DNA of 64,000 nucleotides from an uncultured Gemmatimonadales bacterium (GTDB taxonomy: Bacteria; Gemmatimonadota; Gemmatimonadetes; Gemmatimonadales; GWC2-71-9): assembly GCA_963704805.1 (NCBI GenBank), contig CAVPHS010000001.1, positions 1,234,496 to 1,298,495 on the forward strand. The letters are read 5' to 3'. Positions within the stretch are counted from its first letter, which is position 1; every line of letters starts with the position of its first letter. The translations under genes and the position numbers were made by a program. Of this stretch, positions 26,299-59,712 are shown in pieces. The notes under the pieces were generated by a model. That model searched no databases. It had not been told where the DNA came from and saw nothing but the letters and a program-made list of their open reading frames with translations.

Positions 26299-26431
26299 TT
26301 GTCGAAGTCGTTGTCTCCGCTGCAACTCCGGGGCGCGCGTCCGCGCGCTCCGAAATGCCTCCGCTCCCTTCTCCGCTACATTCATCGAAACTGCTACTGG
26401 GTCGGGTCACGCGACTGCGGGAGACGAACCG

Positions 26432-27361: not shown

Positions 27362-27527
27362 CCGCGGACCGTAGTCGTGTCCCTGTGTCCCATGAGTGCC
27401 GGGACACGCGGACACGAGTCTCGACTCGGCCTCGGAAGGCCGTCACCGCGCCACGTTCTCGTGTCCCGCTGGTCTGGGGATCGGGGCAGGGCGGCCGATC
27501 CACGGGACACGATTCTCGGAGGGTCCA

Positions 27528-29695: not shown

Positions 29696-29772
29696 ACCGC
29701 TCGGGGTCCCTGTCCGGCTAGTCACCGGCGGGGCGTAAGGGGCTACGGACTCCAGCCCGCCCCGGGGCCGGG

Positions 29773-30156: not shown

Positions 30157-30255
30157 GGGCCTCCTTCGGCAAGGCACAGCGGCGCTCTGCCAGTAGGGAT
30201 TTGAGTGGACGGCGTGGGTGAGCGGCATAACGAGATGCGCCTAAGCTCTGGTTGA

Positions 30256-31002
30256 TCACCACCGTTCCTTTGGCTTCCAAGCCGGGTCGGTGAGGTAACC
30301 GTAGAGCATCGATGCGGCGGCGGTGGGCCAATCCGCGCCGTCCTTCGGCCAGTTCGTTTTGACCAGCATAACGCCAAACGTGACCCTCAACAGATTAGCG
30401 AGCGAATCCCTTTCGGTAGTCGTCAGCTTGATGAATTCGAGCCGATGCGTCGCAGGGTTGGAGGTCACGATCCCGTCCGCAGCCTCCGCAGTGGCGACGA
30501 GAAGCATCTCGCCGTTCGCGTGCTCTTTTTGCGAAAGGGAGGCCAAGCTATCGGCCATAGTGCCGGAGCCCATCATGGGGGCGAGCTGATCGATGGCATC
30601 GAGCCCGCGCTTGAACATGTCGGCTTTGGCGCGGGTGATTCTCGCGAGGCCGTCAAACGCCTCAGCCGCCCACGAGGCACTTCTGTAGAAGCCGCTGTCC
30701 TTGGCGGTGCTCATGGAACGGCGCAGCAAGCTCGCTGCGCAGTCGTACTCGCTTGCCGTCACTCTGAATTTGTAGAGTAAATCAGTCGGATTCGTTGTCG
30801 TGTCGTCGCGGGTTGGTTCATTGTCCACGGCAGCTTTCGCATGCCGCAGACTGGCAACATAAAGTGCCGTGAAGCCAGCTGGTGTGGTTGAACCTGCCAG
30901 CGGTGGTACACACATCCACTGTGCGCCCGCGTCCCGGTTCCCCATCGGGGACAAGATGGCCGTGGCCAGGAGGGTGATGTATCGACGCGAAAGGCACCGC
31001 AT
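30256..31002 (-). CDS. hypothetical secreted protein
   Basis: The likely start is MRCLSRRYITLLATAILSP. The upstream part of the tracked ORF runs through a repeat. Confidence 0.4.
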   Translation of the reverse strand: MRCLSRRYITLLATAILSPMGNRDAGAQWMCVPPLAGSTTPAGFTALYVASLRHAKAAVDNEPTRDDTTTNPTDLLYKFRVTASEYDCAASLLRRSMSTAKDSGFYRSASWAAEAFDGLARITRAKADMFKRGLDAIDQLAPMMGSGTMADSLASLSQKEHANGEMLLVATAEAADGIVTSNPATHRLEFIKLTTTERDSLANLLRVTFGVMLVKTNWPKDGADWPTAAASMLYGYLTDPAWKPKERW

Positions 31003-31225
31003 GTCGATTGAGTCTACAACTCCCGCCACGATGCGCCAATCAATGCGGCCTACTGTCGAAAGGACCAGCCTGGTAGGGCGGCAGTCAGTCAGGGGTCTCG
31101 GTCCGGGCTGATCACCGGCGGGGCGTAGGGGGCTGCGGCATCTAGCCCGCCCCGGAGCTGAGAACGCCGCAACTTCGCCTCTCAATGCCGCAAAATCGCC
31201 CTAAACCCCGGGCCCGGGCGTTATC

Positions 31226-32422
31226 ATGATATGCCCCATGCCCACGCATCGCCCGACGATCAATCCGGCCCTGCTCGTCTGGGCGCGCCGCTCGCTGAAC
31301 CTCACCGAGGAACAGGCGGCGACGCGGGTAGGCGTGTCGCTCGACATCTTGCGCGGGTGGGAGAAAGGCGATCCGCTCCCCACAATCGCGCAACTCCGCA
31401 ACGCCGCCGAGAAGTACCGCCGGCCGCTCGGCGTATTCTTTCTGCCGACACCGCCCGCAGACCCGGCTCCCCCGCATGACTTTCGGACAGTTTCCGACCG
31501 GGAAGCCGAGGAGCTTAGTCCCGAGTTACTCGTCGAGCTGCGGCGCGCGCACTATCGCCGTCAACTCGCGCTAGAGCTGCACGAGGACCTCGAACGCCGA
31601 CCGCCGCGCTTCCAACTGCGCGCGCAGCTTGACGACGACGAGGAGGAGACGGGCCGACGTGTCCGCCACGCGCTCGGCGCTCGGCTCGCGGATCAAGAGC
31701 GGTGGCGCGAGGGGAGCGCCTTCAACGAGTGGAAGGCGCTCGTTGAGGCGCACGGGGTGCTCGTGTTCCAGGCGCGCGGCGTGTCCTTTCGCGAGGCGCG
31801 CGGGTTTTCGATTGCCGAGCACCCGTTGCCCGCCATCGTCGTCAACGGTTCGGATTTCCCCAACGCCAAGACGTTCACGCTCCTGCATGAGTTTGTGCAC
31901 CTCATGCTGCATCTCGGCGGCATCTGCGATCCGTACGCACATGTTGCCCGTGGCCGCTCTCGCAACAGCCGCGTCGAAGTGTTCTGCAACCACGTCGCGG
32001 GGGCGGCGCTCGTGCCCGCGGCGGCGCTGGTCAATCATGGTCTGGTGCAATCGAACGAGGAGCCCGAGGGATGGACGGAGGCGACGCTCGACCGGCTCGC
32101 GCGCGACTTCGCCGTTAGCTCGCTCGTCATCCTCCGCCGGCTGCTCATGCTCGGCCGGACCACAACACGCTTCTATGAGAGCTTTCAAACGCAGGTCATC
32201 GCGCGGGCGGAACGACACCGCGCCGAGCGCCCGCCGCAGGAAGGCGGACCGCCGCGGCCCGTTATGGTCGTCGCCGACTTGGGCCGAGCCTTCACCGGAA
32301 CCGTGCTCGATGCGTACAAGAGCCGCGTCATTACCGCCTCGGACGTATCGGAGTACCTCCGCGTCCGCGTTCCGCAGATCGGCGCGGTACAGGAGCGCCT
32401 TACCCTGGGCGCTGGTGAGTAA
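31226..32422 (+). CDS. XRE-type HTH fused to an ImmA/IrrE family metallopeptidase
   Basis: An N-terminal HTH (LTEEQAATRVGVSLDILRGWEKG) and the zinc motif HEFVHLMLH are present. Confidence 0.8.
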   Translation: MICPMPTHRPTINPALLVWARRSLNLTEEQAATRVGVSLDILRGWEKGDPLPTIAQLRNAAEKYRRPLGVFFLPTPPADPAPPHDFRTVSDREAEELSPELLVELRRAHYRRQLALELHEDLERRPPRFQLRAQLDDDEEETGRRVRHALGARLADQERWREGSAFNEWKALVEAHGVLVFQARGVSFREARGFSIAEHPLPAIVVNGSDFPNAKTFTLLHEFVHLMLHLGGICDPYAHVARGRSRNSRVEVFCNHVAGAALVPAAALVNHGLVQSNEEPEGWTEATLDRLARDFAVSSLVILRRLLMLGRTTTRFYESFQTQVIARAERHRAERPPQEGGPPRPVMVVADLGRAFTGTVLDAYKSRVITASDVSEYLRVRVPQIGAVQERLTLGAGE

Positions 32423-32469
32423 CGCTGTTCTCATTCGATACCAGCGCACTTATTGGCGCACATAACGAG

Positions 32470-32880
32470 TTGTATCGGCCGCAGACGTTCCCCGGTCTGT
32501 GGCGAAAGCTGGAAGCGATGATCGCCGAGGGTGAGCTGCGCTGTTCGGAGGAGGTGCTCCACGAGCTGGAGCGCCAGGACGATGACTTGCTCAAATGGGC
32601 GAAGGCTCAGAACGGCCTCTTTGTCCCAATGGACGCCGAGATTGAAGCGGCGGTCAAAACCGTCGTTGTGATTCCCAACGTCGTAAAGAACGCCTCGACC
32701 GACAACTCGGCAGACCCGTTCGTTGTGGCGGTTGGCATAGCGCGGAAGGCGACGGTTGTGAGCAGGGAGAAGCCCGGTAGCGCGCAACGCCCCAAAATCC
32801 CGTACATCTGTAGTGCGTTGAGTGTGCCTCACCAAACACTGGAGGAGTTTGTGACCGGGCAGGGGTGGTCATTTGAGTAG
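32470..32880 (+). CDS. DUF4411 (PIN-like) protein, partner of ImmA/IrrE
   Basis: The pairing is typical and the sequence fits (FPGLW...SEEVLHELERQDDDL...ADPFVVA). The conserved-looking N-terminus (LFSFDTSALIGAHNEL) extends upstream to about 32425 with no ATG/GTG/TTG. Confidence 0.65.
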   Translation: MYRPQTFPGLWRKLEAMIAEGELRCSEEVLHELERQDDDLLKWAKAQNGLFVPMDAEIEAAVKTVVVIPNVVKNASTDNSADPFVVAVGIARKATVVSREKPGSAQRPKIPYICSALSVPHQTLEEFVTGQGWSFE

Positions 32881-32901
32881 CTACTCCGCGAGGAGGCATT
32901 A

Positions 32902-33924
32902 GTGGGAGACTGTCTGTATTGCGGGAAACCCGCCGGTTGGTTCCGCTCAAAGCACAAAGAGTGCGAGACCAAAAACCAGATAGGCCGCGAACAGATCGTC
33001 GCGCTCGCTCAGCGGGCCGTCAGAGACGGGAGCGACCTGACCGCCGTTCAGAGCGAGGTCGGGCGACTGGCGGCAACCGCCTTCGTCCCCCCGGATGAAC
33101 TGCCCAAGTTGTGGCTGACGGCGTGGGAGAACGCCGTGCAAAGCGCGTTGGAGGATAACGTAGTCACAGCCGACGAGGAAAAAGCACTCGTTCGGGCGGC
33201 GGAGCACCTCGGCTGGAAACAAGAAGACTTCTACACTAACGGCGCGTTCGTGAAGCTCGTGCAGGCAGGTGTGTTGCGGGACCTCATGGAGGGAAAACTT
33301 CCTGCGAGGTTTGAAGTCAAAGGACAGCTACCATTCAACTTCCAAAAAGGCGAGGAATTGCTCTGGGCGTTCCCCGGCGTGAAGTACTTCGAAACGCGGA
33401 TGCGACGGACGTTCGTCGGCGGTTCGCAAGGATTCAGCGTGCGGGTTGCGCGCGGCGTCTATTACCGGGTCGGAGGTTTTCGGGGCGAGGCCATACAGAA
33501 TCCCGAGACCGTGTTGGTGGACACGGGAACGCTCGGTGTGACGCAGAAGCACCTCTACTTTGCCGGGCCGTTGAAAAGTTTTCGAGTGCGGTTCGACAAG
33601 ATCGTGTCGTTTACGCCGTATTCCGACGGAATCGGCTTTCAGCGAGACGCGTTGACGGCGAAGCCCCAGGCGTTGCTCACTGGCGACGGGTGGTTCATTT
33701 ACAATCTGGTCACAAACCTCGCCAGCATGGAAACAGAGGAGCCGTCGAACGTGGAGCGACGCGCCCGGAAGTTTATTCCCGCTCGGGTGGAAATTGAGGA
33801 AGAAGCACCGGCACCGACCTGGACAAGATGTTCTCGCTCGCAATTGTCGGTGAATCACACTATCAGGACGCGCTGGAAGCAATCTGCGGCGAGCGGGACG
33901 ACGATGGCGTTGACCGCGTCGTGA
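32902..33924 (+). CDS. hypothetical protein with an N-terminal zinc ribbon
   Basis: CLYCGKPAGWFRSKHKEC is present. The 3' end overlaps the HIRAN ORF by about 97 nt in another frame. Confidence 0.4.
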   Translation: MGDCLYCGKPAGWFRSKHKECETKNQIGREQIVALAQRAVRDGSDLTAVQSEVGRLAATAFVPPDELPKLWLTAWENAVQSALEDNVVTADEEKALVRAAEHLGWKQEDFYTNGAFVKLVQAGVLRDLMEGKLPARFEVKGQLPFNFQKGEELLWAFPGVKYFETRMRRTFVGGSQGFSVRVARGVYYRVGGFRGEAIQNPETVLVDTGTLGVTQKHLYFAGPLKSFRVRFDKIVSFTPYSDGIGFQRDALTAKPQALLTGDGWFIYNLVTNLASMETEEPSNVERRARKFIPARVEIEEEAPAPTWTRCSRSQLSVNHTIRTRWKQSAASGTTMALTAS

Positions 33925-34169
33925 ACGCGTCGCTCGTGCTGGAAGGCTCCAACCCCTACGATCCGCAGGCGGTTCGTGTCGACATCGACGGCAAGACAGT
34001 GGGCTACCTGAGCCGACCTACCGCCCGCGCCTTCCGCCAACAGGTTGCAGCTGGCCAACCCGAAGGAACAGCGTTGCCGTGTAAGGCTAGGATCAAAGGC
34101 GGTTGGGATCGCGGCCCGGAGGACCAAGGCCAATTCGGCGTCTGGCTCAACCTGTCGTTGGAAGGCTGA
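33828..34169 (+). CDS. HIRAN domain protein
   Basis: IVGESHYQDAL...NPYDPQAVRV...GKTVGYL is present. Confidence 0.7.
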   Translation: MFSLAIVGESHYQDALEAICGERDDDGVDRVVNASLVLEGSNPYDPQAVRVDIDGKTVGYLSRPTARAFRQQVAAGQPEGTALPCKARIKGGWDRGPEDQGQFGVWLNLSLEG

Positions 34170-34389
34170 CCAGCGACGCCGAGACTTTTGGTAGTTTTGG
34201 CACTACAAAATCGGAGAATCTTCTACTTGCAGCCGTTCGGCTGCTCACTAAATTGCGTCTTACCATAGCGGCATCGGCCGCGTGACTGGCGGACCCCTCG
34301 CTCCGGCGGAGCGAGGACACAGCCGCAAGACCTCAGTGACTGCCACTTGGAGCCAACTGCTCCGGGTGGCTTTCGTTTTTGGGGGGACA

Positions 34390-34584
34390 ATGCCCGCAAC
34401 GCGCCTACATCGTCTGACCATTCGGTTTCGTGGGCAAGAGGCGCAGCTCGTCAAGGTCGTCGCCGGGCGTCAGGGATTGTCGTTCGCCGAGTGGGCGCGC
34501 GCGGCGTTGCTGCGTCATGCGCAGCTCGAACTCGACCCGGCACCGGTGAACGGTCGCCGCGCCGAGCCGAGCCGGCAGGCCTGA
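34390..34584 (+). CDS. ribbon-helix-helix (CopG-like) DNA-binding protein
   Basis: RLTIRFRGQEAQLVKVVAGRQGLSFAEWARAALL is present. Confidence 0.5.
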   Translation: MPATRLHRLTIRFRGQEAQLVKVVAGRQGLSFAEWARAALLRHAQLELDPAPVNGRRAEPSRQA

Positions 34585-34585
34585 C

Positions 34586-35971
34586 GTGCCTGACGGCGAC
34601 TTGTTTCTCGCGCTGCGCGAAGCTCTTGGAAGCGTGGAGGGCGAGAACAACGGCCACTTCACAGCACAGTGTCCGGCAGGTGATCATCGGCTCGTGGTCC
34701 GCCGTGGTCCCGACCGGAGCGCGTTCGTCGCGTGTCCGACCTGCGGTAGCGCTGCCGGACCCGCGCTCGCCCACCTGCTCGATGTGCCCGTACACGTCGC
34801 GCCGACAGCGGCGGACACGAATCACCGTGCGGATGCGCCCCGGAGACCCGCGCGCGTGCCTGACCGCTTGACGCATATCCGCCACTTTCTCGCCGAGCCT
34901 GACGACCCGGTGTCGTGGATCGTGGACGGCCTGCTGCCCGCGGGCGGGATGTCGGTGCTCGCTGGAAAGCCGAAGGGCGGCAAGAGCACGCTCGCGCGCG
35001 CGATGGTCCTCCGGGTCTGCCGGGGTGAGCCAATCCTGGGCCGCATCACGACGGCAGGGCCGGTGATTTACTTGGGCATCGAGGACCCGCGCCGCGTGAC
35101 GAAGAATCATTTGCGCACGCTTGGCGCTCGACCCGACGACGATCTGTACGTGTTCACGGGGCACCGTCCCGACGAGGCGGTGCTGTGGCTGGAAGATGTT
35201 CTGGCGACGGTGGACCCGGTGCTCGTCGTAGTTGACACGCTCCAGCATCTGCTCGGCGTGAGCGACCTCAACGACTACGCGCGGGTCGTCGCCGCGCTCG
35301 GTCCAGTGTTGGCGCTCGTGCGGCCACGCCGGGCGCACATGCTGCTGATTCACCACGCCGGCAAGGGTGACCGCACGGGCTTCGACGCAATTCTCGGTTC
35401 CACGGCGATTGTCGGGACCGTGGACGTGGCGCTCTTGCTCAAGCGCGGAGCGGACAACGTCCGCACCCTGACCTCGCTGCAACGCACCGGCGAGGACCTG
35501 CCCGAGCGCGTCGTAACGCTCAACGATCAGCAGGAGCCTCAGCTCGGCCCCGCGAAAGAGGCATACGACACGCAACAGGCCGGGGAACGCGTGCTCGCGT
35601 GGCTCCGCACGCAGACCGAGCCGGTGACCCGAAAGGCCGTCGAGGAAACCGTCGAGGGTCGCGCCGAGCTGGTCCGCGGGGCGCTGTACCAACTCGTGCG
35701 GGACGACAAGGTGACGCGGACCGGCGGCGGGAGGCCGGGCGACCCTTACCTGTTCTCGTGTCCGCGTGTCCCTGTGTCCGGGCCTATACCGGGACACGCG
35801 GACACGACGTCGCAAACGGGCGAAACGTCCCGCGCTTCTGCCACTTCCTCGTGTCCCGTTAATCCGGCAACCGCGTCGCCCCAGGACACAATCCGTGACG
35901 CGAATTCTGGCGATGCCGCCGAGCCCGACGGTCCGGCGGACACGTCGTTTGACTTCCCGAGGGAGGATTGA
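34586..35971 (+). CDS. RepA/AAA_25-like replicative ATPase with an N-terminal zinc finger
   Basis: Walker A (AGKPKGGKST), Walker B (VLVVVDTLQ), LLIHHAGKG and CPAGDH...CPTCG are present. Confidence 0.7.
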   Translation: MPDGDLFLALREALGSVEGENNGHFTAQCPAGDHRLVVRRGPDRSAFVACPTCGSAAGPALAHLLDVPVHVAPTAADTNHRADAPRRPARVPDRLTHIRHFLAEPDDPVSWIVDGLLPAGGMSVLAGKPKGGKSTLARAMVLRVCRGEPILGRITTAGPVIYLGIEDPRRVTKNHLRTLGARPDDDLYVFTGHRPDEAVLWLEDVLATVDPVLVVVDTLQHLLGVSDLNDYARVVAALGPVLALVRPRRAHMLLIHHAGKGDRTGFDAILGSTAIVGTVDVALLLKRGADNVRTLTSLQRTGEDLPERVVTLNDQQEPQLGPAKEAYDTQQAGERVLAWLRTQTEPVTRKAVEETVEGRAELVRGALYQLVRDDKVTRTGGGRPGDPYLFSCPRVPVSGPIPGHADTTSQTGETSRASATSSCPVNPATASPQDTIRDANSGDAAEPDGPADTSFDFPRED

Positions 35972-36666
35972 TGCCGATGCCCAACAACCTGAAATCGCTG
36001 ATCAAACATCGCGACGCCGCGGCTGCGAAGGTGGCCGCGCTGGAAGCGCGCCGCGCGGAGCGGCGGCGCGAGCACGCGACACTCACCGACGACATCGCGG
36101 CGCTGGACGAGCAGCTCGTCACCGCGGACGCCGCGGGCGAGGCGGTCACGGTGCTGGAGGCCGAGCGTGCGCAGCGGCTGCAGCGCCAGCGCGACCTCGC
36201 GGCCGTCCTGCCGCTCTTGGAGCAGCAGCTCGCCGAAGCGCGCGCCGAGTTGCACGCGGCCCGCCTCCAGGTGGGGGGCGCGCAGCTCGCGGCGGACGAG
36301 CGCGCGCTCATTGCGGACGGGCTCGCGTTCGCGGAGGAATTCGGTCGTGACGTGCTCGCGGTCTACGGGCCGCGTGCGACGGAGTTACTCAGCCGCCTGG
36401 AGCACCTGGGGCGGGACGAGCATGAGGTAGACCAACTGAACGGCCGCCGCGCCCGCGGCTGGACGGCGCGGGACCGCTTCATCCGCGACACGCGGCTGCT
36501 CATGCAGCAACTCATCGTCCTATGCGAGTGGGCACACGGCCGGCCGACGCAGCTCGACCGGTCGCAGCCTGCCGAGTCGGACCGGCCAGAGACTGAGTTG
36601 GACCGGCGGCTACGGCTGCACTCGACCGTCGCTGAGGCGTCGCGTCGGCTGGGATTGTCACGCTGA
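35968..36666 (+). CDS. coiled-coil hypothetical protein
   Basis: It overlaps the upstream stop. The N-terminal half is heptad-rich. Confidence 0.45.
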   Translation: MMPMPNNLKSLIKHRDAAAAKVAALEARRAERRREHATLTDDIAALDEQLVTADAAGEAVTVLEAERAQRLQRQRDLAAVLPLLEQQLAEARAELHAARLQVGGAQLAADERALIADGLAFAEEFGRDVLAVYGPRATELLSRLEHLGRDEHEVDQLNGRRARGWTARDRFIRDTRLLMQQLIVLCEWAHGRPTQLDRSQPAESDRPETELDRRLRLHSTVAEASRRLGLSR

Positions 36667-36696
36667 AGTAGTGAACCTGAAACAGAGGAGCGAGTC

Positions 36697-36915
36697 ATGG
36701 CATTCACGAAACCTGTTCGCCGGGCGATGTGGCATTTGGACCGGCGACTCCGCGCGTACAAGAGAGCCGTCACGCAGCACCTCGCCAACCTGGACGCGAC
36801 GATCGCCGAGAACGGAGGCGAAGCAGATGCCGAGATCGTCGCTGGCTGGACGGCTCCGGAGTTTCTGGCCGGGTTCAAGGCGCTGCGCGATGCCCTGAAA
36901 AACTTCCCGGCCTGA
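36697..36915 (+). CDS. hypothetical protein (72 aa)
   Basis: The ORF is preceded by GAGGAG. No motif was recognised. Confidence 0.35.
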   Translation: MAFTKPVRRAMWHLDRRLRAYKRAVTQHLANLDATIAENGGEADAEIVAGWTAPEFLAGFKALRDALKNFPA

Positions 36916-36922
36916 GCATTGT

Positions 36923-37252
36923 GTGACGAGTGCCGAGCTGGCCGAGCTGACCAAGCTGGTCGCGTTCTGGCGCGAGCAGGCCGCCGCCTACGAACAAGAC
37001 GGCCAGCCCGGCACGGCCTTGCTCCGCAGAGTGGCCACCGAGCTGGACGAGGCGGTGCGGGGCCTCGGCCTGGAGGAGTTGACGGTGGCGCAGGCGGCGG
37101 CGGAGAGCGGTTACAGCGCCTCGCAGCTCCGGCGGCGGTTCCCGGGCCAGCGGACAATCCGCCGGGCGGACCTGCCCCGGAAGGGGCGGCACGGTGGGCC
37201 GGACCTGGCGGGGGCCGTCTTGCGAGGGACCTACCATGGTGGTAGGTTATAG
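36923..37252 (+). CDS. HTH protein, excisionase-like
   Basis: LTVAQAAAESGYSASQLRRRF is present. The gene lies near the integrase. Confidence 0.45.
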   Translation: MTSAELAELTKLVAFWREQAAAYEQDGQPGTALLRRVATELDEAVRGLGLEELTVAQAAAESGYSASQLRRRFPGQRTIRRADLPRKGRHGGPDLAGAVLRGTYHGGRL

Positions 37253-37257
37253 GGACG

Positions 37258-37530
37258 ATGACCCTACAGAATGTTGTCCGCCAAGCGATTGCCGACGCCC
37301 CGCGCTCTTTGCGTTCGTTGCGGGCGTTGGCCAAGGCCGCCGGTATCTCGCACGTCACCCTGATGCGTATTCGCGATGGGGACGAGCCAGCGAGTGCGCG
37401 CGTCGCCGCAAAGCTCGCCCAGGTGCTTGATGCCTGGGCGGCCGAGCACGCGCGCGATGCCGAGAAGTGTGCGCGGTCCTCCTCGCGGATTCGGACGGCG
37501 TTGCGGGGTTCGACAGGGAGGGCAGAATGA
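37258..37530 (+). CDS. HTH DNA-binding protein
   Basis: LRALAKAAGISHVTLMRIRDG is present. It overlaps the integrase start by ATGA. Confidence 0.45.
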   Translation: MTLQNVVRQAIADAPRSLRSLRALAKAAGISHVTLMRIRDGDEPASARVAAKLAQVLDAWAAEHARDAEKCARSSSRIRTALRGSTGRAE

Positions 37531-38819
37531 CCACGACAGCAGCACAGCTCCCCACCGCCAAGACTCGACGCCGCACGCGCTGGTCGTGGTCGGTCGGAGA
37601 GTACGGCGAGCGCGTCCTCGTGTTCGAGGAGCGGAACGGGCGCCTGTACGGCCAGATTCGCGGCCGCCGCGTCGCGCTTGGCCACAAGGACCGCGACCGG
37701 GCGAAGACGTGGGCGAAGGATCAGGAGAAGCAGCTCCGCGACGGGCTCGCGACCGCGGCCGACCCGACGCCGACCGTCGCCAAGGTGTTCGCGGCGTACC
37801 TCGCGGCGCGCGCGGAGCAGGACCTCTCCGCCACGTCGCGGTACGTGGACGAGCGGTGCGGCGGCCGCCTGCCCGATCCCAAGGTGCCCGGCGACGCAGG
37901 CGACCCCGGCCTGTTCGCCCGCGTGCTCGGCGCGGGCCGCGACCTCTCCAAGCTCACGCTCGGCGAGTGGCAGCACTTCATCCGCCAGCGGCTGACCGGC
38001 GCCGTGGACGCGTGGGGCCGGGACGTGCCCGCCCCGGTGACGCCCGAGGACGCGAAGCGGCGACCGGTCCGCGCCCGCACGGTGGAGGCCGACTGCGAGT
38101 GGCTCGCGATTGTCTGCAACTGGGCGACCGAGTGGGAGGACCGCGAGACCGGCCAGCCGCTCCTCCGCGAGCATCCGCTCAAGCGGGAGCGCTTCCGCGA
38201 CGCCGTGCCGCACGAGCAGAACCCGCGTCGGCCGGTCGCGACGCAGGACCGCTACGAGGCCATCGTGGCCAAGGCGGCGACCGTGCACCCGTACCTCGTG
38301 CCTCTGCTCGCCATCGTGAACGGCGCGGGCCGCCGCATCTCCGCGGTGCTCCAGCTTCGCTACGAGGACGTGCGGCTCGCCAAGACGGCGGGCGCGCCCT
38401 ACGGCGCGATTCAGTGGCCGGGGGAGTCGGACAAGATGGGGAAGGCGTGGGCCGCGCCGATCAACGCCGCGGTGCGCGCGACGCTCGACGCAGTGCTCGC
38501 CGCGCGGCCCGGACTCGGCGGGGCGTACCTGTTTCCGTCGCCGATGGACCCGGCGCAGCCGATGGACCGGTGGTTCGCCTCGAAGCTGCTGCGCCGCGCC
38601 GAGCGGCTCGCCAAAGTGCCGAAGCACCACGGCTCACTCTGGCACGCCTACCGGCGGAAGTGGGGCACGGAGCGGAAGCACCTGCCGGTCCAGGACGTGG
38701 CGCAGGCGGGCGGATGGAAAAACACGGCGACGCTGGAGACGATTTACCAGCAGCCCGACGAGGCGACGCTCTACCGCGTCGTGTCCGAGCCAGCCGAATT
38801 GCGGGAAGCGCACGCGTGA
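37527..38819 (+). CDS. tyrosine-type site-specific integrase
   Basis: The C-terminal catalytic region (LWHAYRRKW...GGWKNTATLETIYQQ) is present. The gene ends 131 nt before attR. Confidence 0.85.
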   Translation: MTTTAAQLPTAKTRRRTRWSWSVGEYGERVLVFEERNGRLYGQIRGRRVALGHKDRDRAKTWAKDQEKQLRDGLATAADPTPTVAKVFAAYLAARAEQDLSATSRYVDERCGGRLPDPKVPGDAGDPGLFARVLGAGRDLSKLTLGEWQHFIRQRLTGAVDAWGRDVPAPVTPEDAKRRPVRARTVEADCEWLAIVCNWATEWEDRETGQPLLREHPLKRERFRDAVPHEQNPRRPVATQDRYEAIVAKAATVHPYLVPLLAIVNGAGRRISAVLQLRYEDVRLAKTAGAPYGAIQWPGESDKMGKAWAAPINAAVRATLDAVLAARPGLGGAYLFPSPMDPAQPMDRWFASKLLRRAERLAKVPKHHGSLWHAYRRKWGTERKHLPVQDVAQAGGWKNTATLETIYQQPDEATLYRVVSEPAELREAHA

Positions 38820-38950
38820 GCGCGCTCCGCTATTTCCTCCGCCAAGTCTTGCGCGCATCCTGCGTGTCTAGCGTGCGGCGCGCGCGTATGGCGCGCATCG
38901 TTGAGCACGAACCCGCGCACGATGCGCGAATCCGGCGCCACCGGCGACGG

Positions 38951-38992
38951 ATGGGGTTCAGGGGGTCGCGGGTTCAAATCCCGCCGTCCCGA
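38951..38992 (+). repeat. attR: 42-bp copy of tRNA-Pro positions 32-73
   Basis: It is identical to 26257-26298. Confidence 0.85.
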
Positions 38993-43694: not shown

Positions 43695-43712
43695 GCGCAT
43701 AGCTCGCGCTTG

Positions 43713-43837
43713 TTTGCCGTAATGTTTGCCGGTCCATCGCTACCGATGCGTGCCAATACGGTCCTTGGACGCACGTACGTGCCAATAAAACAACGGCCCC
43801 GCATGGAGGCCGTTGCATTCAAATCCCGCCGTCCCGA
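43713..43837 (+). repeat. conserved ~126-nt element, copy A, ending in the 20-nt tRNA-Pro 3' end
   Basis: It starts at TTTGCCGTAATGTTTGCCGG and ends at TTCAAATCCCGCCGTCCCGA. It aligns with copies B-E. Confidence 0.85.
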
Positions 43838-43853
43838 CTGAGTGAAGATCAAG

Positions 43854-45236: not shown

Positions 45237-45259
45237 CGCGCGTCTCATCCCGACGGGGC

Positions 45260-45385
45260 TTTGCCGTAATGTTTGCCGGTCCATGCCCGCCAATGCCTAC
45301 CGATGCGGTCATTCCGCGCACATATGTGCCAATAAAAACAACGGCCCCGCATGGGAGCCGTTGAATTCAAATCCCGCCGTCCCGA
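45260..45385 (+). repeat. conserved ~126-nt element, copy B
   Basis: It has the same boundaries and the same 3' 20-mer as copy A. Confidence 0.85.
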
Positions 45386-45394
45386 TTAGCGAAG

Positions 45395-51742: not shown

Positions 51743-51919
51743 TTGTCTTCGTGGTCCTAGCCTGCAATTTGGATGACGGTCTGACCCTGGGCGTGTCGCT
51801 CGCCAACGTGCCGGAGCGGCAAGATCCCAGGTCCGGTGCTCGAGGGCCAGATCGGCGACGTCCTCGAGCATCACGCGTCCGGGATGATGGGGCACTTCGA
51901 CGTGGTGCGATGAAAGGTG

Positions 51920-52045
51920 TTTGCCGGAATGTTTGCCGGTCCATGATCGCCAGTGACTACCAATGCGGTCGTTAAGACACCCATACGTGCGAATAAAACA
52001 ACGGCTCCGCATGGGAGCCGTTGAATTCAAATCCCGCCGTCCCGA
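51920..52045 (+). repeat. conserved ~126-nt element, copy C
   Basis: It has the same boundaries. This is the most divergent copy but it retains both hairpins. Confidence 0.85.
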
Positions 52046-52251
52046 TTGGAGTTAGGCATCTTCCAAGCCGACTGATCAATAGTCGGCTCAATAGTTCCGC
52101 AGTCTCGTTAAGCCGTGTCCGCAGGACTTAAGACGTATGAAAACTGCCCTCGACCCTAGGACGACTTTCTGACACGCTGACCCAATGCCGCGCGGAACCG
52201 CAGGCGTCCTCCACTGTTTTCTACAACACTCTTTCGACTCGGACCTGCGAC

Positions 52252-53250
52252 GTGAGAAATGCCTTGCGACCGTGGGCGGTCGCGTTCCTCGGACTGCTTG
52301 GCTGTCGCGGTGAACCCCTGGTTTCGCCGGAAGGCGAGCCGGGCGTCTACCCGGTCGGCAGCACCATGCTCACGAGTCTTGCGGCGCTGGATGTGCTCGG
52401 TGACACCCGCCGCGACCTCGTCGCCGTCGCCCGCGGTGACCTGACAATCCGCATCCTGCCGGGCGACACCGCGGGTACCTTCGCGGCGCCGCTCGCCCTC
52501 ACGGCGGGAAACGACGCCCGCCGGGCGACCGCCGGAGATGTGAACGGCGACGGCGTCCCCGACCTGCTCGTAATCGGGCACGACAACGTGTTCATCGTGC
52601 GGCTCGGCCTGGGCAGCGGCCGCTTCGCCGATGGGGTGAAGTACCCCCTCCGCAACCACGGGAACTTCATCCTCGTCGCCGATCTCAACGGGGACGCGTT
52701 CGACGATGTCGTGGCCGTGCACGACGGCTCGGGGAACCCGGTGTACGTCACGGCCTACCTCGGCTCCGCGAGCGGAGCGCTGCAGCCGGTGTGGGAGATG
52801 GGCACGACCTACTTCACCTCGATGGGGCTCGCCGCCGGCGACTTCGACGCCGACGGCAAGACCGACGTCGCAGTCGCCGTCGGCGACAACCGCGCCGCGG
52901 TGTTGGTGTTCCGCGGACAGGGGACGGGGGAGTTCGCCGCGCCGCTCGTACTGCCGACGCTCTCGCCCGATCCCCGCACAACCGACGGCACGACCGCGCT
53001 GGCCGTGGGGGATCTCGACGGGGACGGCCGCGACGACGTCGTCGTGGCCTGCTACGCCTTCAGCAACCGGCTCGTCATCCGGGGGTCGCGGGTTGAGCTG
53101 CGGCCGCTTCGCGGCCTCGCTCCGCTTGACCGGCTGCAGCCGGTCACCGGCGCTTCGCGCCGGACGCGTCAAATCCCGCCGTCCCGACTGAGTGAAGCCC
53201 TGCAACGTTGCTGGTTGCAGGGCCTCTTTTCAGGCGAGGTTAAACGATAA
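52252..53250 (+). CDS. FG-GAP/VCBS repeat lipoprotein, with a 3' end that reads through a tRNA-derived site
   Basis: A lipobox (LLGC) is present. The repeats GDVNGDGVPDLLV, ADLNGDAFDDVV, GDFDADGKTDVAV and GDLDGDGRDDVVV occur. The tail from about 53082 is tRNA-fragment and terminator sequence. Confidence 0.65.
   Translation: MRNALRPWAVAFLGLLGCRGEPLVSPEGEPGVYPVGSTMLTSLAALDVLGDTRRDLVAVARGDLTIRILPGDTAGTFAAPLALTAGNDARRATAGDVNGDGVPDLLVIGHDNVFIVRLGLGSGRFADGVKYPLRNHGNFILVADLNGDAFDDVVAVHDGSGNPVYVTAYLGSASGALQPVWEMGTTYFTSMGLAAGDFDADGKTDVAVAVGDNRAAVLVFRGQGTGEFAAPLVLPTLSPDPRTTDGTTALAVGDLDGDGRDDVVVACYAFSNRLVIRGSRVELRPLRGLAPLDRLQPVTGASRRTRQIPPSRLSEALQRCWLQGLFSGEVKR
53082..53188 (+). repeat. tRNA-Pro 3' fragment (GGGGGTCGCGGGTT ... 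TCAAATCCCGCCGTCCCGA) interrupted by a ~74-nt GC-rich insertion
   Basis: 14 nt plus 19 nt match tRNA positions 44-73. The insert at 53096-53169 contains three short hairpins. Confidence 0.7.
53199..53231 (+). terminator. rho-independent-type terminator
   Basis: The sequence reads CCCTGCAAC-GTTGCTG-GTTGCAGGG followed by CCTCTTTT. Confidence 0.55.
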
Positions 53251-54888: not shown

Positions 54889-55320
54889 ATGAGCTTCTAC
54901 GAGCGCTTCGAAGCGCTCGTGGCGTTGGTGCTCACGGCGGTTATCACCATCGTCATCGTGGTCGCCCTGTGGCGTCTCATCGTTAGCGTGGTGGATAAGT
55001 TGTTGCTCCAAAGCCTGAACCCGCTGGAGCACAATGTGTTTCAGGCCGTCTTCGGGGAAATCCTGACCCTATTGATTGCATTGGAGTTCAACCACACGCT
55101 GCGCTACGTCGTCACCCGGGGCTGGGGGATCATCCAGGCAAAGATCGTCATTCTGATCGCGGTGCTGGCTCAGGTGCGCAAGATCATCGTGTCGGATGTC
55201 TCGGCACTGCCGCCGGCAACGCTGGGGGCCGAAGCCGGCCTGCTCCTCGCCTTGGGCATAACGTATTTGTTGATGCGCGAAGGGAAAGACGGGCTCGAGC
55301 CGCCATCAGCGGATCGCTAG
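54889..55320 (+). CDS. PsiE-like phosphate-starvation-inducible membrane protein
   Basis: Four TM helices are present, along with LIALEFNHTLRYV. The start is 54889 or 54856. Confidence 0.55.
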   Translation: MSFYERFEALVALVLTAVITIVIVVALWRLIVSVVDKLLLQSLNPLEHNVFQAVFGEILTLLIALEFNHTLRYVVTRGWGIIQAKIVILIAVLAQVRKIIVSDVSALPPATLGAEAGLLLALGITYLLMREGKDGLEPPSADR

Positions 55321-55369
55321 TCAGAGAATCGACGGGGGACGGGACGGCCGCTTCCTAGTTCGCGTTTTG

Positions 55370-55494
55370 TTTGCCGTAATGTCTGCCGGTCCATACCCGC
55401 CGATGCCTACCAATGCGGTCTGTTCGCGCACGTAAGTGCCGGAAAAACAACGGCCCCGCATGGGGGCCGTTGAATTCAAATCCCGCCGTCCCGA
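55370..55494 (+). repeat. conserved ~126-nt element, copy D
   Basis: It has the same boundaries. The inner hairpin AACGGCCCC-GCATG-GGGGCCGTT is perfect in this copy. Confidence 0.85.
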
Positions 55495-55511
55495 CTCGTA
55501 AGGAGCTTCAA

Positions 55512-55547
55512 CCCCTACAACGAGTTCCCTCGTTGTGGGGCTTTTGC
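55512..55547 (+). terminator. rho-independent-type terminator after element D
   Basis: The sequence reads CCCCTACAACGAG-TTCCC-TCGTTGTGGGG followed by CTTTTGC. Confidence 0.6.
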
Positions 55548-55552
55548 AAGCA

Positions 55553-55814
55553 GGTCCTTCCCTTCGCTCCCTTTTCTCTTACACAAAGACGCGCGCGGCA
55601 TGTCATCCTGAGCGAAGCGAAGGACCTGCTTTTGACAGGTGCGCGAGCGCGAGAAGCAGATCCTTCGTGCTGCGCACTCAGGAGGTCCCTCGCGCCTGTG
55701 GCGCTCCCCAATCCCAAAGCAGGTCCTTCGCTACGCGCGCCTGCGGCGCGCTCCGCTCAGGATGACAAGCGCGCTCGCTGTCGCAACAAAAAAAGATCAG
55801 CGAAGGGAAGGATC
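55553..55814. repeat. nested imperfect palindrome (MITE/REP-cluster-like) built from GTCATCCTGAGCGAAGCGAAGGACC-type units
   Basis: The outer arms are 55553-55568 and 55799-55814. The inner arms are 55602-55629 paired with 55719-55732 plus 55754-55766. Confidence 0.7.
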
Positions 55815-57185
55815 TGCCATAGAGCCCAACTGGCTCTCGCTGGGCTCCGCTCAGCAGAACCACGGCTCGGTGAGCCGTGCGGGGATCGGCCGCTCGGGGG
55901 GCGGGCGTCGCACGCCCCCTGCTCGTTGTTGCGCGCTGACTTCGGCGTGCAGCGCGTCCATGCGCGGGTCGGGGTGGGTCCAGCGGTAGGTGAACGCCGC
56001 GGGGTCGAGCGCGCCGAGGAAGGGCTGGATGGCGGGGCGGGTGAGCAGCGCCGAGCCTGGGGGGATGAGCAGGCGGATGGTCAGCTGCACCGGGTCCACT
56101 TGATCTACGAGGTCCCTCGCGTGAAAGAAGTCCACCAGATCGCGGTAGCTGTCGAGTGTTTCCCACGGCGTGAACGGGATCAGCGAGGGGCGCAGCGGGA
56201 TGCCGGCGCGGCGCGTCAGGTCGAACGCGGTAAGCGCGTCGGCGCGGGTGTGGCCTTTCTCTAATTCCGAGAGCACGACGTCGCTCAGCGACTCGACGGC
56301 CGACACGATGAACGCGCAGCCCGTCCGGGCGAATTCCGGGAGATGCGCGCGGTGGCGGAGCAGGTGCTCGATCTTGGCCGTGAAGTCGTAGGTGACGCCG
56401 GGGAATTCGGCGTGCAGCGCGCGGACCAGCTTCAGCGCGTGGCCGGGGCCGTTCAGGAAGTCGGGGTCGCCGAAGGTGATGTGTCCCGCGCCGGCGGCGA
56501 CTAGGCGGCGGATATCAGCAAGGACGATCTCGGGCGGCACGACAAAGAATCGCCCGTCGTAGACGGGAGGAATGGGGCAGTGGAGGCAGTGGTGCAGACA
56601 CCCTCGACTTGCCTCGACGTAACCCGCTGGAATCTCGACTTCATTGCGCTGGAGTTTGACATACCTGGTGAGCCCTGGCAGCGAGGCGCGACTGGGAGCT
56701 GGAAAGTCGAGGCGTTTGCGTGCGGCGTGCGGCGTGTGGCGTGGCGATTCACCACGTTCGAGGCGATCGACGTGCTCGACGAACTCCTCCTCGAATTCCC
56801 CTCCGAAAACCTCATCAGCCAACCCGCCCAGGAGGTAGTCCGCGTTGAGCAGGGCGTAGAGGCCGTGAAACACGATGCGGCAGCGCGGGTTTTCGCGGCG
56901 GATCCGCTCGGCGGCGCGGACGCCCAGGCGCAGCGCGGTGTGCATCGGGACCGCGATGGCGACCAGTTGGGCGCGGCGGATCTTGGTGTCGTCCCAGGGC
57001 TCGAGCGCGAGGTCGAGGGAGTCGGGCGCGAAGCCGGCGCGCTCGAGGAAGGCTTTGGGCCAGGCGATGCCGAGAGGCTGGTGGCCGAGCTCGTAGCAGG
57101 AAAGCAGGACGATCGCGCCGGGGTCGCGGAGGGGGGGCGAGGCCGGGGCCTGGGTGGTCTGGATTGCGACGTCGGGTATGGCCAT
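55797..57185 (-). CDS. B12-binding-domain radical SAM protein, candidate selenoprotein (C-U-A-E-P tail with in-frame TGA at 55851-55853)
   Basis: The radical SAM motif CLHHCLHC (CX3CX2C) is present. The tracked ORF stops at TGA after ...EPWFC, and the next codons read AEP. A 9-bp hairpin lies 3 nt downstream. The frame then runs to a TGA at 55797. The start is 57185 (MAIPD) or 57314. Confidence 0.7.
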
Positions 57186-57249
57186 CGATATGAAGTTAAT
57201 CCGGCCTCGTTGGTGCAGCTCCCGCATCACTTCGGCTGGGCAGCTCTCG

Positions 57250-57480
57250 CCAAGGCCGCCGGGGCCAAGGACCGCGTCGCCGAGTTGGCGAAGGATCTCC
57301 TCGCGCATTTCCAAAGCCGGATTGCAACGCTCGACGGTAAAGGGATGGTTGTGTGTATGACGCGGCGAACTGCGTCCGGGTATTCGACGCGCTCACTGCG
57401 CTGCCAGGGTGCCCTGAGGTAAAGGTGGTGATGACCGGAGACCTCGGCATAGACCCGCCGCAGTGGAGCGAAGCCGGCGT
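57250..57480 (+). pseudogene. hsdR: fragment of a type I restriction enzyme R subunit (hsdR) with one frameshift
   Basis: LAKDLLAHFQSRIATLDGKGMVVCMTRR is followed in another frame by CVRVFDALTALPGCPEVKVVMTGDLG. This resembles the HsdR segment ...MDGKAMIVCMSRRICV.LY..I..LRP......IKVVMTGS as I recall it. Confidence 0.45.
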
Positions 57481-57657
57481 TCTACCCAGCCCTGATACCG
57501 AGCGGCGAGATAACCTAAGCCGGCAGCAAGGATGGCAAGGATTCCGCCTGCCAGGATGTCTGAATCCATAGAGATGTTTTGGAGACCGTGGCCGCCCGGT
57601 GAACTAGAAAGACCTGCCTATTCACCACTTCCTCGATCATCATAATCGCTGAGCATG

Positions 57658-57782
57658 TTTGCCGTAATGTTTGCCGTTCCATGTCCGCCAATGCCTACCA
57701 ATATGGTCACTGCGCGCATGTAAGTGCATATAAAACAACGGCCCCGCATGGAGGCCGTTGCATTCAAATCCCGCCGTCCCGA
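57658..57782 (+). repeat. conserved ~126-nt element, copy E (last of the array)
   Basis: It has the same boundaries and the same 3' 20-mer. Confidence 0.85.
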
Positions 57783-57831
57783 CTCGAGTAAACCAACGGC
57801 GCGATCGTCGCTTGACGGTCGAGCCGTGCGT

Positions 57832-59712
57832 TCAGCTAGACTCGAGCCCCACCGCCCCCGCCGGCCGCAGCCCCGCCAAAAGGCGCTCATAACGCGGATT
57901 GCCATGCAGGGCGTCGAACTCCGGCCGACGCAGCGCGGCCCAGAGGTAGGGGACGGGTGACGCGCGCTCCAACCGATCCAGTGCGGCCGCTGTATCGCCC
58001 ACCGCCACCAACGCCGCCATGACGAGCCAATGCTCGGTCCGCCCCGGCCAGTGCGCAGTCAGGGCCCGAGCTCGGGTGCTGTCTCCCGCGCGGGCGAGGA
58101 CAGTGGCGAGCACGCTTTCCATAACCATGTCCCCAGGCTGCAGCTGGTTGGCCAGCTCAGCGTCCTCCTGAGCTCCGCGCACGTCGCCCGCCCGAAGGCG
58201 GGCTAACGCCCGCCACCGCCGCGAGAAAGCCGAGCCAGGGTCGAGCGCGACGGCGCTGTCGGTCAGCGCCACGGCGAGCGCGGTTTCGCGAACGTGCGTC
58301 CACGCCAGATCGACGAAGGAGATCGCGCGTCCCGGATCGAGCGCGAGCGCCAGGCGCTGCTCCCGATCGGCCTCATCGGACCGCCCGAGCCAGTTGAGGA
58401 TCGAGCCGTATTGATGGTGCGCCTCTGCGTTCTTGGGGTCGAGGGCGATGGACTGCTCGAACGCCTGCACCGAGCCGTCCAAGGTGCGGGGGTGGGCGAA
58501 GGCGAGGAGGTAGCCGCGTGCCATCCAGGCGTCGGAGCAGGTCGAATCGCGGCGCAGCGCGCGGTCGGCGACGGCGAGCCCGCGGATTGCCAGGCTCTCG
58601 ATCGGTGTGTCAGGCAGCCGATAGTGGTTGCCGCGCGCGATCGCGTGCGCGTAGGCCGCTCGTCCGATCGCCGCGGCAAACCCGGAGTCGAGCCGCTCGG
58701 CTTCCCGATACTCAGCGAGGGCCCGGGCGGTCCCATCCGGTGACCGGCGCGCCAGAAAGAAGTTGCCTCGCAGAAAATGGTCGTAGGCAGCCGGGCTCTG
58801 GGTGCGCACCGCGCCTAGCACGGTTTCCCACGACGAGGCCGAGCCGCCCACGTGCAGCGCCACCTCCCGGGCGATGACCGAGGGCAACGCGAGCAGCTCG
58901 TCCGGCGACCGATCGAACACGTCGCCCCACGCCGCAAGCGCCGTCGTCCCATTCAGGAGCCGGATCGACACCCGGACGCGCGCGCCCACGCGCCGCACAT
59001 TGCCGTCCACCAGGTAGCGCACACCGAGCGCACGGGCGATCGCCGGCACGTCGCCCGGCGACGCCCGCTGCGCGCGCCGCACCACGCCGGGCGACTTCAC
59101 CTGCACACTTGCCACGCTGCCGAGGAGGCTCGTGAGGTCTTCCGTCAAGCCGTCGGCCAGATAGGCGTCGGCCGTGTCGCGTGCTGCGAAATACAGCACG
59201 GCGACTCCGTTCGCGACATCGGCCCCCGGCGCAGTTGCCTGGGGACGGCTCCAGGGATGCCACAGGCCGGCGATGGATGCGAGGGCGACCGCACCCGCGA
59301 TGACGGCAACCGTGGCTGCCCTGGACGGGTGCTCCTCAGAACGGACACTCGGCACCGCTTCCGAGGCGACCACGGCATCGATCGGCGCGATGAACCGGTA
59401 CCCGCGACGCGGCAGCGTCTCCACCAGTCGCGGGTTCTCGGCCGAGTCGCCCAGGGCGCTGCGGAGTCTGTGAATCGCTTTGTCGAGGCCGACATCGAAT
59501 TCCACAAACGTGCCGGCGGGCCAAATCGTCTGGCGCAGGTCCTCCCGCGTCACCACTTCGCCGGGATGCTCCAGGAGGAGCGCCAAGATCCGAAACGGCT
59601 GCTGCTGCAGCTTGATTTTGATCCCCTGCTTGAAGAGCTCGCCCGCATGAAGGTCGACTTGGAACACGCCGAACCGGACGACTCGTCGAGCAGATCGCTG
59701 GGGATTCTCCAC
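57832..59712 (-). CDS. CadC/OmpR-type winged-helix regulator with one TM helix and a C-terminal TPR region
   Basis: The N-terminal region FGVFQVDLHAGELFKQG..IKLQQQPFRILALLLEHPGEVVTREDL...LPRRGYRF is present. Confidence 0.8.
   Translation of the reverse strand: MENPQRSARRVVRFGVFQVDLHAGELFKQGIKIKLQQQPFRILALLLEHPGEVVTREDLRQTIWPAGTFVEFDVGLDKAIHRLRSALGDSAENPRLVETLPRRGYRFIAPIDAVVASEAVPSVRSEEHPSRAATVAVIAGAVALASIAGLWHPWSRPQATAPGADVANGVAVLYFAARDTADAYLADGLTEDLTSLLGSVASVQVKSPGVVRRAQRASPGDVPAIARALGVRYLVDGNVRRVGARVRVSIRLLNGTTALAAWGDVFDRSPDELLALPSVIAREVALHVGGSASSWETVLGAVRTQSPAAYDHFLRGNFFLARRSPDGTARALAEYREAERLDSGFAAAIGRAAYAHAIARGNHYRLPDTPIESLAIRGLAVADRALRRDSTCSDAWMARGYLLAFAHPRTLDGSVQAFEQSIALDPKNAEAHHQYGSILNWLGRSDEADREQRLALALDPGRAISFVDLAWTHVRETALAVALTDSAVALDPGSAFSRRWRALARLRAGDVRGAQEDAELANQLQPGDMVMESVLATVLARAGDSTRARALTAHWPGRTEHWLVMAALVAVGDTAAALDRLERASPVPYLWAALRRPEFDALHGNPRYERLLAGLRPAGAVGLESS

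Follow-up and report, generated by a model that had tools for sequence, protein, structure and literature searches.

A predicted CUAEP-tail radical SAM selenoprotein in a tRNA-Pro island array of an uncultured Gemmatimonadales bacterium and the covarying hairpin behind its UGA codon

We analysed a stretch of 64,000 nucleotides (nt) from an uncultured Gemmatimonadales bacterium (GenBank assembly GCA_963704805.1, contig CAVPHS010000001.1, positions 1,234,496 to 1,298,495 of the forward strand), which is referred to here as the window and numbered from its first letter. On the minus strand it carries a gene for a radical S-adenosylmethionine (SAM) protein, whose open reading frame runs into an in-frame TGA at 55853-55851. 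Judged by comparison with homologous genes, this TGA is almost certainly a selenocysteine (Sec) codon, the U of a C-U-A-E-P motif, and the product of the gene is very probably a CUAEP-tail radical SAM selenoprotein with a full length of about 462 residues. The present analysis supports the membership of the gene in its family, the alternation of TGA with cysteine codons at this position, translation beyond the TGA and selection on a hairpin in the downstream RNA. An earlier note on this DNA, made from the letters alone, had proposed Sec recoding here; this central claim is borne out, while the hairpin it had offered as the recoding signal gives way to another. Recoding as such is not a discovery, because NCBI already models and names the family. 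What is added is a Sec insertion sequence (SECIS) of the family, defined by covariation as a 17-nt hairpin, a testable functional lead in the form of the sister family ArsL, with Cys-Sec at the position of arsenite-binding cysteines, a conserved gene order of the radical SAM gene with genes for an Nfu or DUF169 protein and an L-amino-acid ligase in other phyla, and the context of a genomic island.

The coding region up to the cysteine before the recoded codon extends from 57185 to 55854 on the minus strand and comprises 444 amino acids when counted from the ATG at 57185. The start codon is uncertain: an in-frame TTG and an in-frame ATG lie upstream at 57314 and 57308, and the public record holds a 485-residue version, while homologues measure 446-470 residues. 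The motif for binding of the [4Fe-4S] cluster and SAM, CX3CX2C, is present as CLHHCLHC (C196, C200, C203; 56600-56577, minus strand), as had been claimed, and its three cysteines are invariant in a family alignment that also contains Cys-form and ArsL-type relatives. The Pfam domain Radical_SAM (PF04055) was matched with 48.1 bits, above its cutoff of 29.5. The B12-binding-like N-terminal part described in the earlier note holds as a resemblance at the level of the fold, but it is weak, PF02310 scoring 23.3 bits and thus falling under the gathering score of 32.1. Scored with U written as C, the protein reached 635.8 bits (E 3.9e-191) on the NCBIfam model NF040546, whose curated equivalog cutoff is 500. 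The best-matching stretch, residues 25-421, covers positions 1-405 of the 468 in the profile, and one further stretch was reported. The name of this model, 'CUAEP/CCAEP-tail radical SAM (seleno)protein', is exactly the one given in the earlier note, and NCBI already gives it to some of the homologues. A sequence search of the PDB returned only the distant AprD4 (6FD2, E 1.5e-6).

The NF040546 family is uncharacterised, its function being 'not well known', and counts among the rare selenoproteins with a CU (Cys-Sec) motif (Haft 2022, bioRxiv 10.1101/2022.07.06.499078). With the NCBIfam model, the NCBI naming and this preprint, the recoding phenomenon is already known at the family level. The window protein shares with the family the CX3CX2C core, the weak B12-like N-terminal domain, the ...EPWFC-U-AEP tail and Sec/Cys alternation in the same column. 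It departs from typical members in its distal tail, which reads MADPSLR where VEREAGGWR is common, and in that its gene stands alone in a tRNA-Pro island array. On sequence grounds we regard it as an ordinary member of NF040546, with no essential difference from the rest of the family.

The open reading frame ends with ...ARLTEPWFC, its last codon being TGC at 55856-55854, and is followed directly by the TGA. Behind it, GCG GAG CCC specify A-E-P, which gives the C-(U/C)-A-E-P motif as TGC TGA GCG GAG CCC (55856-55842, minus strand), and 14 further sense codons (SESQLGSMADPSLR) lead to the true stop, a TGA at 55799-55797. The sequence statements made earlier about this end of the gene, i.e., the end of the frame, the A-E-P codons, the 14 further codons and the second TGA, were all correct. 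The resulting C-terminal extension of 17 codons (AEPSESQLGSMADPSLR; 55850-55800, minus strand) was compared with the DNA of 80 homologous loci from species-representative genomes, 78 of which were evaluable, so that 79 sequences including the window entered the analysis. The loci come from at least five phyla and include Gemmatimonadota, Rokubacteria/Methylomirabilota, Nitrospirae, Acidobacteria, Planctomycetota, Elusimicrobia and Ignavibacteriales. WFC is followed by TGA in 61 sequences, by TGC in 14 and by TGT in four, and neither TAA nor TAG occurs there. At the downstream true stops of the homologous genes all three stop codons are mixed (TGA 42, TAG 24, TAA 12), and a first-position stop that is never TAA or TAG is therefore unexpected for a genuine terminator. 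The C-(U/C)-A-E-P motif is found in all 78 evaluable loci, with SEP in one and VEP in another.

In nearly all loci the frame runs on past the TGA for 10-29 codons, mostly for 12 or 19, and AEP[TS]E[SG]Q[LFV]G is kept in frame across the 78 loci; the distal tails vary across many lineages. Over the first four codons past the TGA the entropy at first, second and third codon positions amounts to 0.09, 0.16 and 0.90, respectively. Variation is thus almost confined to third positions, which argues that the sequence behind the TGA is translated. More distant Cys forms bear WFCCAEPT..Q internally, and the TGA column aligns with the second cysteine of the CC pair in the Cys forms and in ArsL. The classifiable representatives of clusters at 50% identity comprise 38 Sec-type truncations and 43 Cys forms. 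Aligning the tails of Sec and Cys homologues had been suggested as a check, and the Cys forms indeed keep CCAEPT..Q, with the extension conserved. A TGA aligned with a Cys codon and conserved translated sequence on both sides of it is the comparative signature of a selenoprotein. In agreement with recoding, the family model is matched above its cutoff, TGA (61) alternates with TGC or TGT (18), and the third-position pattern is that of coding sequence.

Protein databases do not reflect this. All 120 closest database proteins (P0001 to P0120), including two that bear the NCBI family name (P0036 and P0054), end with ...LTEPWFC, because gene callers stop at the TGA. As had been foreseen, standard gene calling truncates the protein of the window as well: its public copy (P0001) is 100% identical to the window gene and ends with ...WFC. 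Family members ending exactly at this cysteine had been named as a finding that would refute recoding; since the database ends are a gene-calling artefact, this test is invalid as framed. The practical use of the finding lies in correcting the annotation: the public copy and, with it, all 120 closest homologues are cut at the Sec codon, and the Sec tail of 12-29 residues is systematically absent from protein databases.

When the 48 nt from the UGA onwards were folded in every locus, a hairpin with a stem of 5-8 base pairs (bp) closing an AGUU(N) loop recurred. In the window this element, termed hairpin B here, consists of AGAGCC, the loop AGUUG and GGCUCU (55837-55821, minus strand; 17-mer AGAGCCAGUUGGGCUCU). 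It occupies nt 17-33 counted from the U of the UGA and starts 13 nt past the UGA. Across the 61 Sec loci, 89.7% of its cells are paired and compensatory changes occur at five of the six pairs. The covariation score is 0.290 compared with 0.176 after shuffling; none of 500 shuffles attained these values, and controls slid along the sequence were at most 58.7% paired. The main covariation replaces AGC..UCU by GGC..CCU and entails a joint exchange of Ser..Ser for Gly..Pro in the peptide. In variants encoding QLAL, the stem persists in a shifted register and closes a loop of 4 nt. Both the joint change of two residues and the retention of the stem in the QLAL variants suggest that selection acts on the RNA and not on the peptide. 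Of the loop nucleotides, G24 never varies, and conservation reaches at least 90% for A23 and U26.

The hairpin follows the Sec codon. All 61 Sec loci have an uninterrupted stem of 5 bp or more; of the 18 Cys loci, whose stems average 2.9 bp, two reach this length (Mann-Whitney p ~6e-11, not corrected for phylogeny), and the mean minimum free energy (MFE) is -18.4 kcal/mol for the Sec loci and -12.9 kcal/mol for the Cys loci. Within Gemmatimonadota, a Cys codon (TGC) at this position occurs in a single locus, L022, and there hairpin B is decayed to 3 bp (6243-6290 of that locus, GAGAUCCAACUGGGCUCU), so that a Sec/Cys difference inside one phylum also goes along with absence of the SECIS. As far as conservation and covariation can tell, the SECIS-like element of the family is therefore hairpin B, a smaller hairpin that differs from the most stable local fold. 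The minimal SECIS of Escherichia coli fdhF is a 17-nt hairpin as well; it spans nt 15-31, begins 11 nt past the UGA and has a bulged U17 and an essential G23 and U24 in its loop (PMC8659212). Hairpin B resembles it in its length of 17 nt, its location within the coding sequence and a G-U in the loop (nt 24-25 instead of 23-24), and differs from it in its perfect 6-bp stem and its AGUU(N) loop; its role as a SECIS is a prediction.

The earlier note had pointed to a different structure, and the 9-bp stem with an 8-nt loop that it drew does exist (GAGCCCAGC/GUUGGGCUC, loop GAGAGCCA; 55847-55822, minus strand; hairpin A). RNAfold stretches this stem to 10 bp and adds a lower stem of 7 bp that contains the UGA. 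The fold of 73 nt has an MFE of -30.4 kcal/mol (z = -2.38) and was equalled by seven of 200 shuffles. On its own, the stability of hairpin A in this GC-rich sequence is thus only modestly above chance. Hairpins A and B are mutually exclusive because they share their 3' arm. For hairpin A speak its status as the MFE structure in the window and a loop that starts with G. Nevertheless, we consider it very unlikely to be the functional element. In the 61 Sec loci it is 73.3% paired, a value matched by 145 of 500 shuffles, its covariation score is 0.099 compared with 0.093 after shuffling, and at four of the nine positions of its stem the bases do not pair in 12 to 40 of 52 distinct sequences, while the competing hairpin B covaries strongly. 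Its 5' arm begins 3 nt past the UGA and, with the UGA in the A site, would sit inside the mRNA channel of the ribosome. The first 13 nt correspond approximately to what the ribosome would cover in this state. When they are masked, hairpin B is the sole fold left in the window. A stem-loop of the kind expected of a SECIS downstream of the UGA is thus provided by hairpin B, whereas hairpin A fails the test of conservation.

Recoding with the help of hairpin B has points against it as well. In the free RNA of the window, hairpin A is favoured over hairpin B (-17.5 compared with -9.6 kcal/mol), and with its spacing of 13 instead of 11 nt and without a bulged U, hairpin B deviates from the E. coli fdhF SECIS. 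The region matches no Rfam family, the closest approach in a permissive scan of 55300-55900 being sX11 with 23.5 of the 70 bits needed; at gathering threshold, tRNA-Pro is the only Rfam hit in the 64-kb window. The split into Sec and Cys forms largely follows phylum, with Nitrospirae on the Cys side and Gemmatimonadota, Rokubacteria and Acidobacteria on the Sec side, so that few independent switches underlie the contrasts between the two forms. A tblastn search with the SelA, SelB and SelD proteins of E. coli (NC_000913.3) detected no selA, selB or selD, either in the 64-kb window or across 1.17 Mb flanking the homologous genes. ARAGORN detected no tRNA-Sec in the window, where tRNA-Pro is the only tRNA, or in any homologous flank. 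These negative searches mean only that the Sec machinery is not co-located with the gene. A search of the literature for Sec use in Gemmatimonadetes found nothing directly usable.

These points bear on the view that translation truly terminates at the TGA in this genome, for instance for want of Sec machinery in the organism or through decay of a horizontally acquired copy, so that the protein would end with ...EPWFC and the downstream similarity would be inherited without being functional. The missing machinery genes and tRNA-Sec in the window, the public record of the identical protein ending with WFC, the location in an island array without the partner genes seen elsewhere and the departure of MADPSLR from the common ...VEREAGGWR ending all speak for it; yet it is most improbable, for the frame, the AEPSESQLGS motif and the perfect 6-bp hairpin B are all intact in the window, variable distal tails are found in many lineages, a stretch of 64 kb covers too little of a genome to count as a negative, and truncated entries are a gene-calling artefact common to 120 of 120 closest homologues, NCBI-named ones included. 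In the recoding mechanism that we propose instead, hairpin B (55837-55821, loop AGUUG) would draw SelB, loaded with Sec-tRNA(Sec), to a ribosome that has reached the UGA at 55853-55851. Sec would then be inserted beside the cysteine, and translation would run for 17 more codons (AEPSESQLGSMADPSLR) to the stop at 55799-55797. Both the binding of SelB and the actual insertion of Sec are steps that we infer.

What the Cys-Sec pair may do is suggested by the second-best NCBIfam match of the protein. This is ArsL (NF040542, 'rSAM_RCCLKC'), matched over its full length with 285.1 bits (E 1e-84). Conversely, when two proteins with RCC[LI]KC tails were scored, the ArsL model gave 655.6 and 516.4 bits and the CUAEP model 344.8 and 340.5 bits. 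These reciprocal scores identify CUAEP/CCAEP and ArsL as sister families. ArsL is the radical SAM enzyme of arsinothricin biosynthesis; it converts SAM to methylthioadenosine and moves the 3-amino-3-carboxypropyl group to As(III). The cysteines of its RCCLKC tail bind arsenite and are needed for product formation, not for the cleavage of SAM. A joint alignment (MAFFT) puts the two adjacent cysteines of RCCLKC into the C-U/C-C column pair, neither column of which varies; this placement of the tails is plausible. Beyond full-length homology at 33-36% identity, the window protein has in common with ArsL the order of domains, the CX3CX2C motif and a vicinal pair of chalcogens in the C-terminal tail. 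It differs from ArsL in that its tail reads C-U-AEPT..Q and continues for 10-20 residues, where ArsL ends with RCCLKC, in the use of Sec, and in a linker before the pair that is about 45 residues longer.

Since the sister family binds arsenite at the equivalent position of its tail, we tentatively suggest that the Cys-Sec pair serves, on a flexible tail, to keep a soft metal or metalloid substrate in place at the radical SAM active site; on the evidence of sequence this is a real possibility, though one that falls short of an even chance. Several findings weigh against such a function. The score on the ArsL model remains below its cutoff of 450. The tail offers two ligands and no third cysteine, in contrast to three in ArsL, and hence lacks the CCxxC arrangement. 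The homologous loci contain neither arsM- or arsQ-type partners nor other arsenic-related neighbours: CUAEP/CCAEP genes are accompanied by Nfu or DUF169 and L-amino-acid ligase genes, while ArsL is accompanied by ArsM and ArsQ in the arsQML cluster. Finally, the Nfu and ligase partners are themselves missing in the window and at the other Gemmatimonadota loci.

Alternatively, Sec is inserted but the Cys-Sec pair forms a redox-active selenenylsulfide on a flexible arm, which would deliver electrons or hydrogen atoms to the radical SAM active site or accept them from it. The Gly-Cys-Sec-Gly tail of mammalian thioredoxin reductase offers an analogy, and most known selenoproteins use Sec in redox chemistry. 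The two rather than three chalcogen ligands, unlike the CCxxC of ArsL, and the lack of arsenic-related neighbour genes fit such an arm, and a family function described as 'not well known' in the Haft preprint leaves room for it. We nevertheless hold a redox arm to be somewhat doubtful. The relationship to ArsL extends over the full length of the proteins, and the aligned CC of ArsL binds As(III) and has no cluster or redox role. Moreover, CU motifs recur in proteins that handle heavy metals, such as HgcA, MerT and the SAO system (bioRxiv 10.1101/2022.07.06.499078).

The neighbourhood of the homologous genes adds to the metalloid- or metal-holding proposal. At 30 of the 78 loci (all among L025-L079) the radical SAM gene is followed on the same strand first by a gene for a NifU/Nfu-type or a DUF169 protein and then by one for an ATP-grasp L-amino-acid ligase, as exemplified by L057 (11439-11721 and 11746-12994) and L061 (3153-3861). 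The first partner is a small iron-sulfur (Fe-S) carrier of the NifU/Nfu type (PF01106) in Rokubacteria and Acidobacteria and a DUF169 protein (PF02596) in Nitrospirae; the second (PF13535, PF18603, PF18130) shows weak similarity to BacD and DdaF. This gene order occurs in Rokubacteria/Methylomirabilota, Acidobacteria, Nitrospirae and Elusimicrobia, beside Sec as well as Cys forms, and would fit a small biosynthetic operon for making and then ligating an unusual amino acid. The neighbours at Gemmatimonadota loci, such as genes for enoyl-CoA hydratase and carboxyltransferase, were considered as functional partners and set aside as synteny of the lineage, as judged by eye.

In the other phyla, the Nfu-type Fe-S carrier encoded downstream would supply the cluster, and the L-amino-acid ligase would ligate the amino-acid product. 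Taken to its full length, this reasoning leads to an ArsL-like enzyme that would place the 3-amino-3-carboxypropyl group of SAM on a metalloid or metal held by the tail and, together with Nfu and the ligase, as present in Rokubacteria, Acidobacteria and Nitrospirae, make an organo-metalloid antimetabolite. Its product would be a previously unknown amino acid or dipeptide of soil bacteria, and in the window the gene would have been captured as a single-gene cassette in a tRNA-Pro array, the boundary unit of which, about 135 nt long, is widespread in soil metagenomes. In all its parts together this picture is speculative and rather unlikely. If the ArsL lead were true, it would mean new organo-metalloid natural-product chemistry in abundant soil phyla with few cultured members.

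The genomic context of the gene is an array built on an intact tRNA-Pro(GGG) gene (26225-26298, plus strand; ARAGORN and Rfam). The 3'-terminal 20 nt of this tRNA recur seven times downstream on the same strand, where 0.03 occurrences would be expected by chance. The copies start at 38973, 43818, 45366, 52026, 53168 (with one mismatch), 55475 and 57763. The first of them (38973-38992) shares about 45 nt with the 3' half of the tRNA and adjoins a gene for a tyrosine integrase (37467-38819, PF00589). Between the tRNA-Pro gene and this direct repeat of about 45 nt lies an integrative element of 12.7 kb (26298-38992). Besides the integrase, it encodes a protein with helix-turn-helix and ImmA/IrrE (Peptidase_M78) domains (31226-32422) as well as an AAA_25 protein (34586-35971); for the majority of its remaining large open reading frames Pfam gave no match. 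Overall, the units of the array measure 1.1-12.7 kb and carry unrelated cargo, comprising a histidine kinase with a LuxR-type regulator and a hydrolase, a MOT1 molybdate transporter, a GMC oxidoreductase and others; over its entire length the array showed a single integrase. The copy with one mismatch (53168-53187) lacks the arm described below and closes a segment with FG-GAP repeats; the unit after it holds BON and PsiE proteins.

Five of the copies are part of a longer unit of about 135 nt (43707-43840, 45255-45388, 51915-52048, 55364-55497 and 57652-57785, plus strand). It is composed of a conserved arm of about 110 nt with a tandem TTTGCCG..TTTGCCG, a perfect 10-bp hairpin (CAACGGCCCC-GCAT-GGGGGCCGTTG) and the tRNA-Pro 3' core. 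A 25-mer of the unit is present in more than 120 metagenome contigs and was not found on viral contigs. Among the metagenome loci analysed (L083-L162), the tRNA-Pro core sits at a fixed offset in 66 of 81 full-length copies of the unit, and four contigs contain two copies. A structured RNA gene was considered and rejected, RNAalifold finding compensatory changes at one of 27 pairs. The unit may be the att arm of a widespread element that targets tRNA-Pro or an attC-like boundary of cassettes.

The last unit of the array (55498-57785) contains the radical SAM gene alone. It is framed by the repeat units at 55364-55497 on the low-coordinate side (tRNA-Pro 3' core 55475-55494) and at 57652-57785 on the high-coordinate side (core 57763-57782), which are 87% identical over about 131 nt (55368-55498 compared with 57656-57786). 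The earlier description of a gene on its own in a cassette delimited by tRNA cores is thus accurate: it is the only gene between two repeat copies, each of which ends in the 3' 20 nt of tRNA-Pro. The array as a whole has the make-up of a tRNA-targeting island, with partial tRNA copies flanking cargo and a tyrosine recombinase within it. From this structure it is plausible that the radical SAM cassette may be mobile, as the earlier note had suggested. It has no integrase of its own. Neither the tRNA-Pro core nor the repeat unit was found in any of the 80 homologous radical SAM loci, none of 80 metagenome contigs with the unit carries the radical SAM gene, and no relative of the gene was found on viral contigs.

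Tycheposon islands arise by successive integrations at a tRNA gene (bioRxiv 10.1101/2020.12.28.424599). The array of the window resembles them in its intact tRNA-Pro gene with seven copies of the 3' end, its tyrosine integrase and the cargo between the copies. It differs from them in that one integrase stands against seven copies and that five copies have the additional arm of about 110 nt and the hairpin. In some units there is just one gene of 1-2 kb, an arrangement closer to integron cassettes.

Two minor observations concern the borders of the cassette. Between the true stop of the radical SAM gene and the adjoining repeat unit lie inverted repeats that resemble repetitive extragenic palindromic elements, GTCATCCTGAGCGAAGCGAAGGACCTGC at 55602-55629 on the plus strand and an imperfect complement at about 55719-55766. 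Just past the last repeat unit, a gene on the minus strand (57832-59712) encodes a protein of 626 amino acids with an N-terminal Trans_reg_C domain (winged helix of the OmpR/CadC type) and C-terminal tetratricopeptide (TPR) repeats, and this gene may mark the chromosomal edge of the island.

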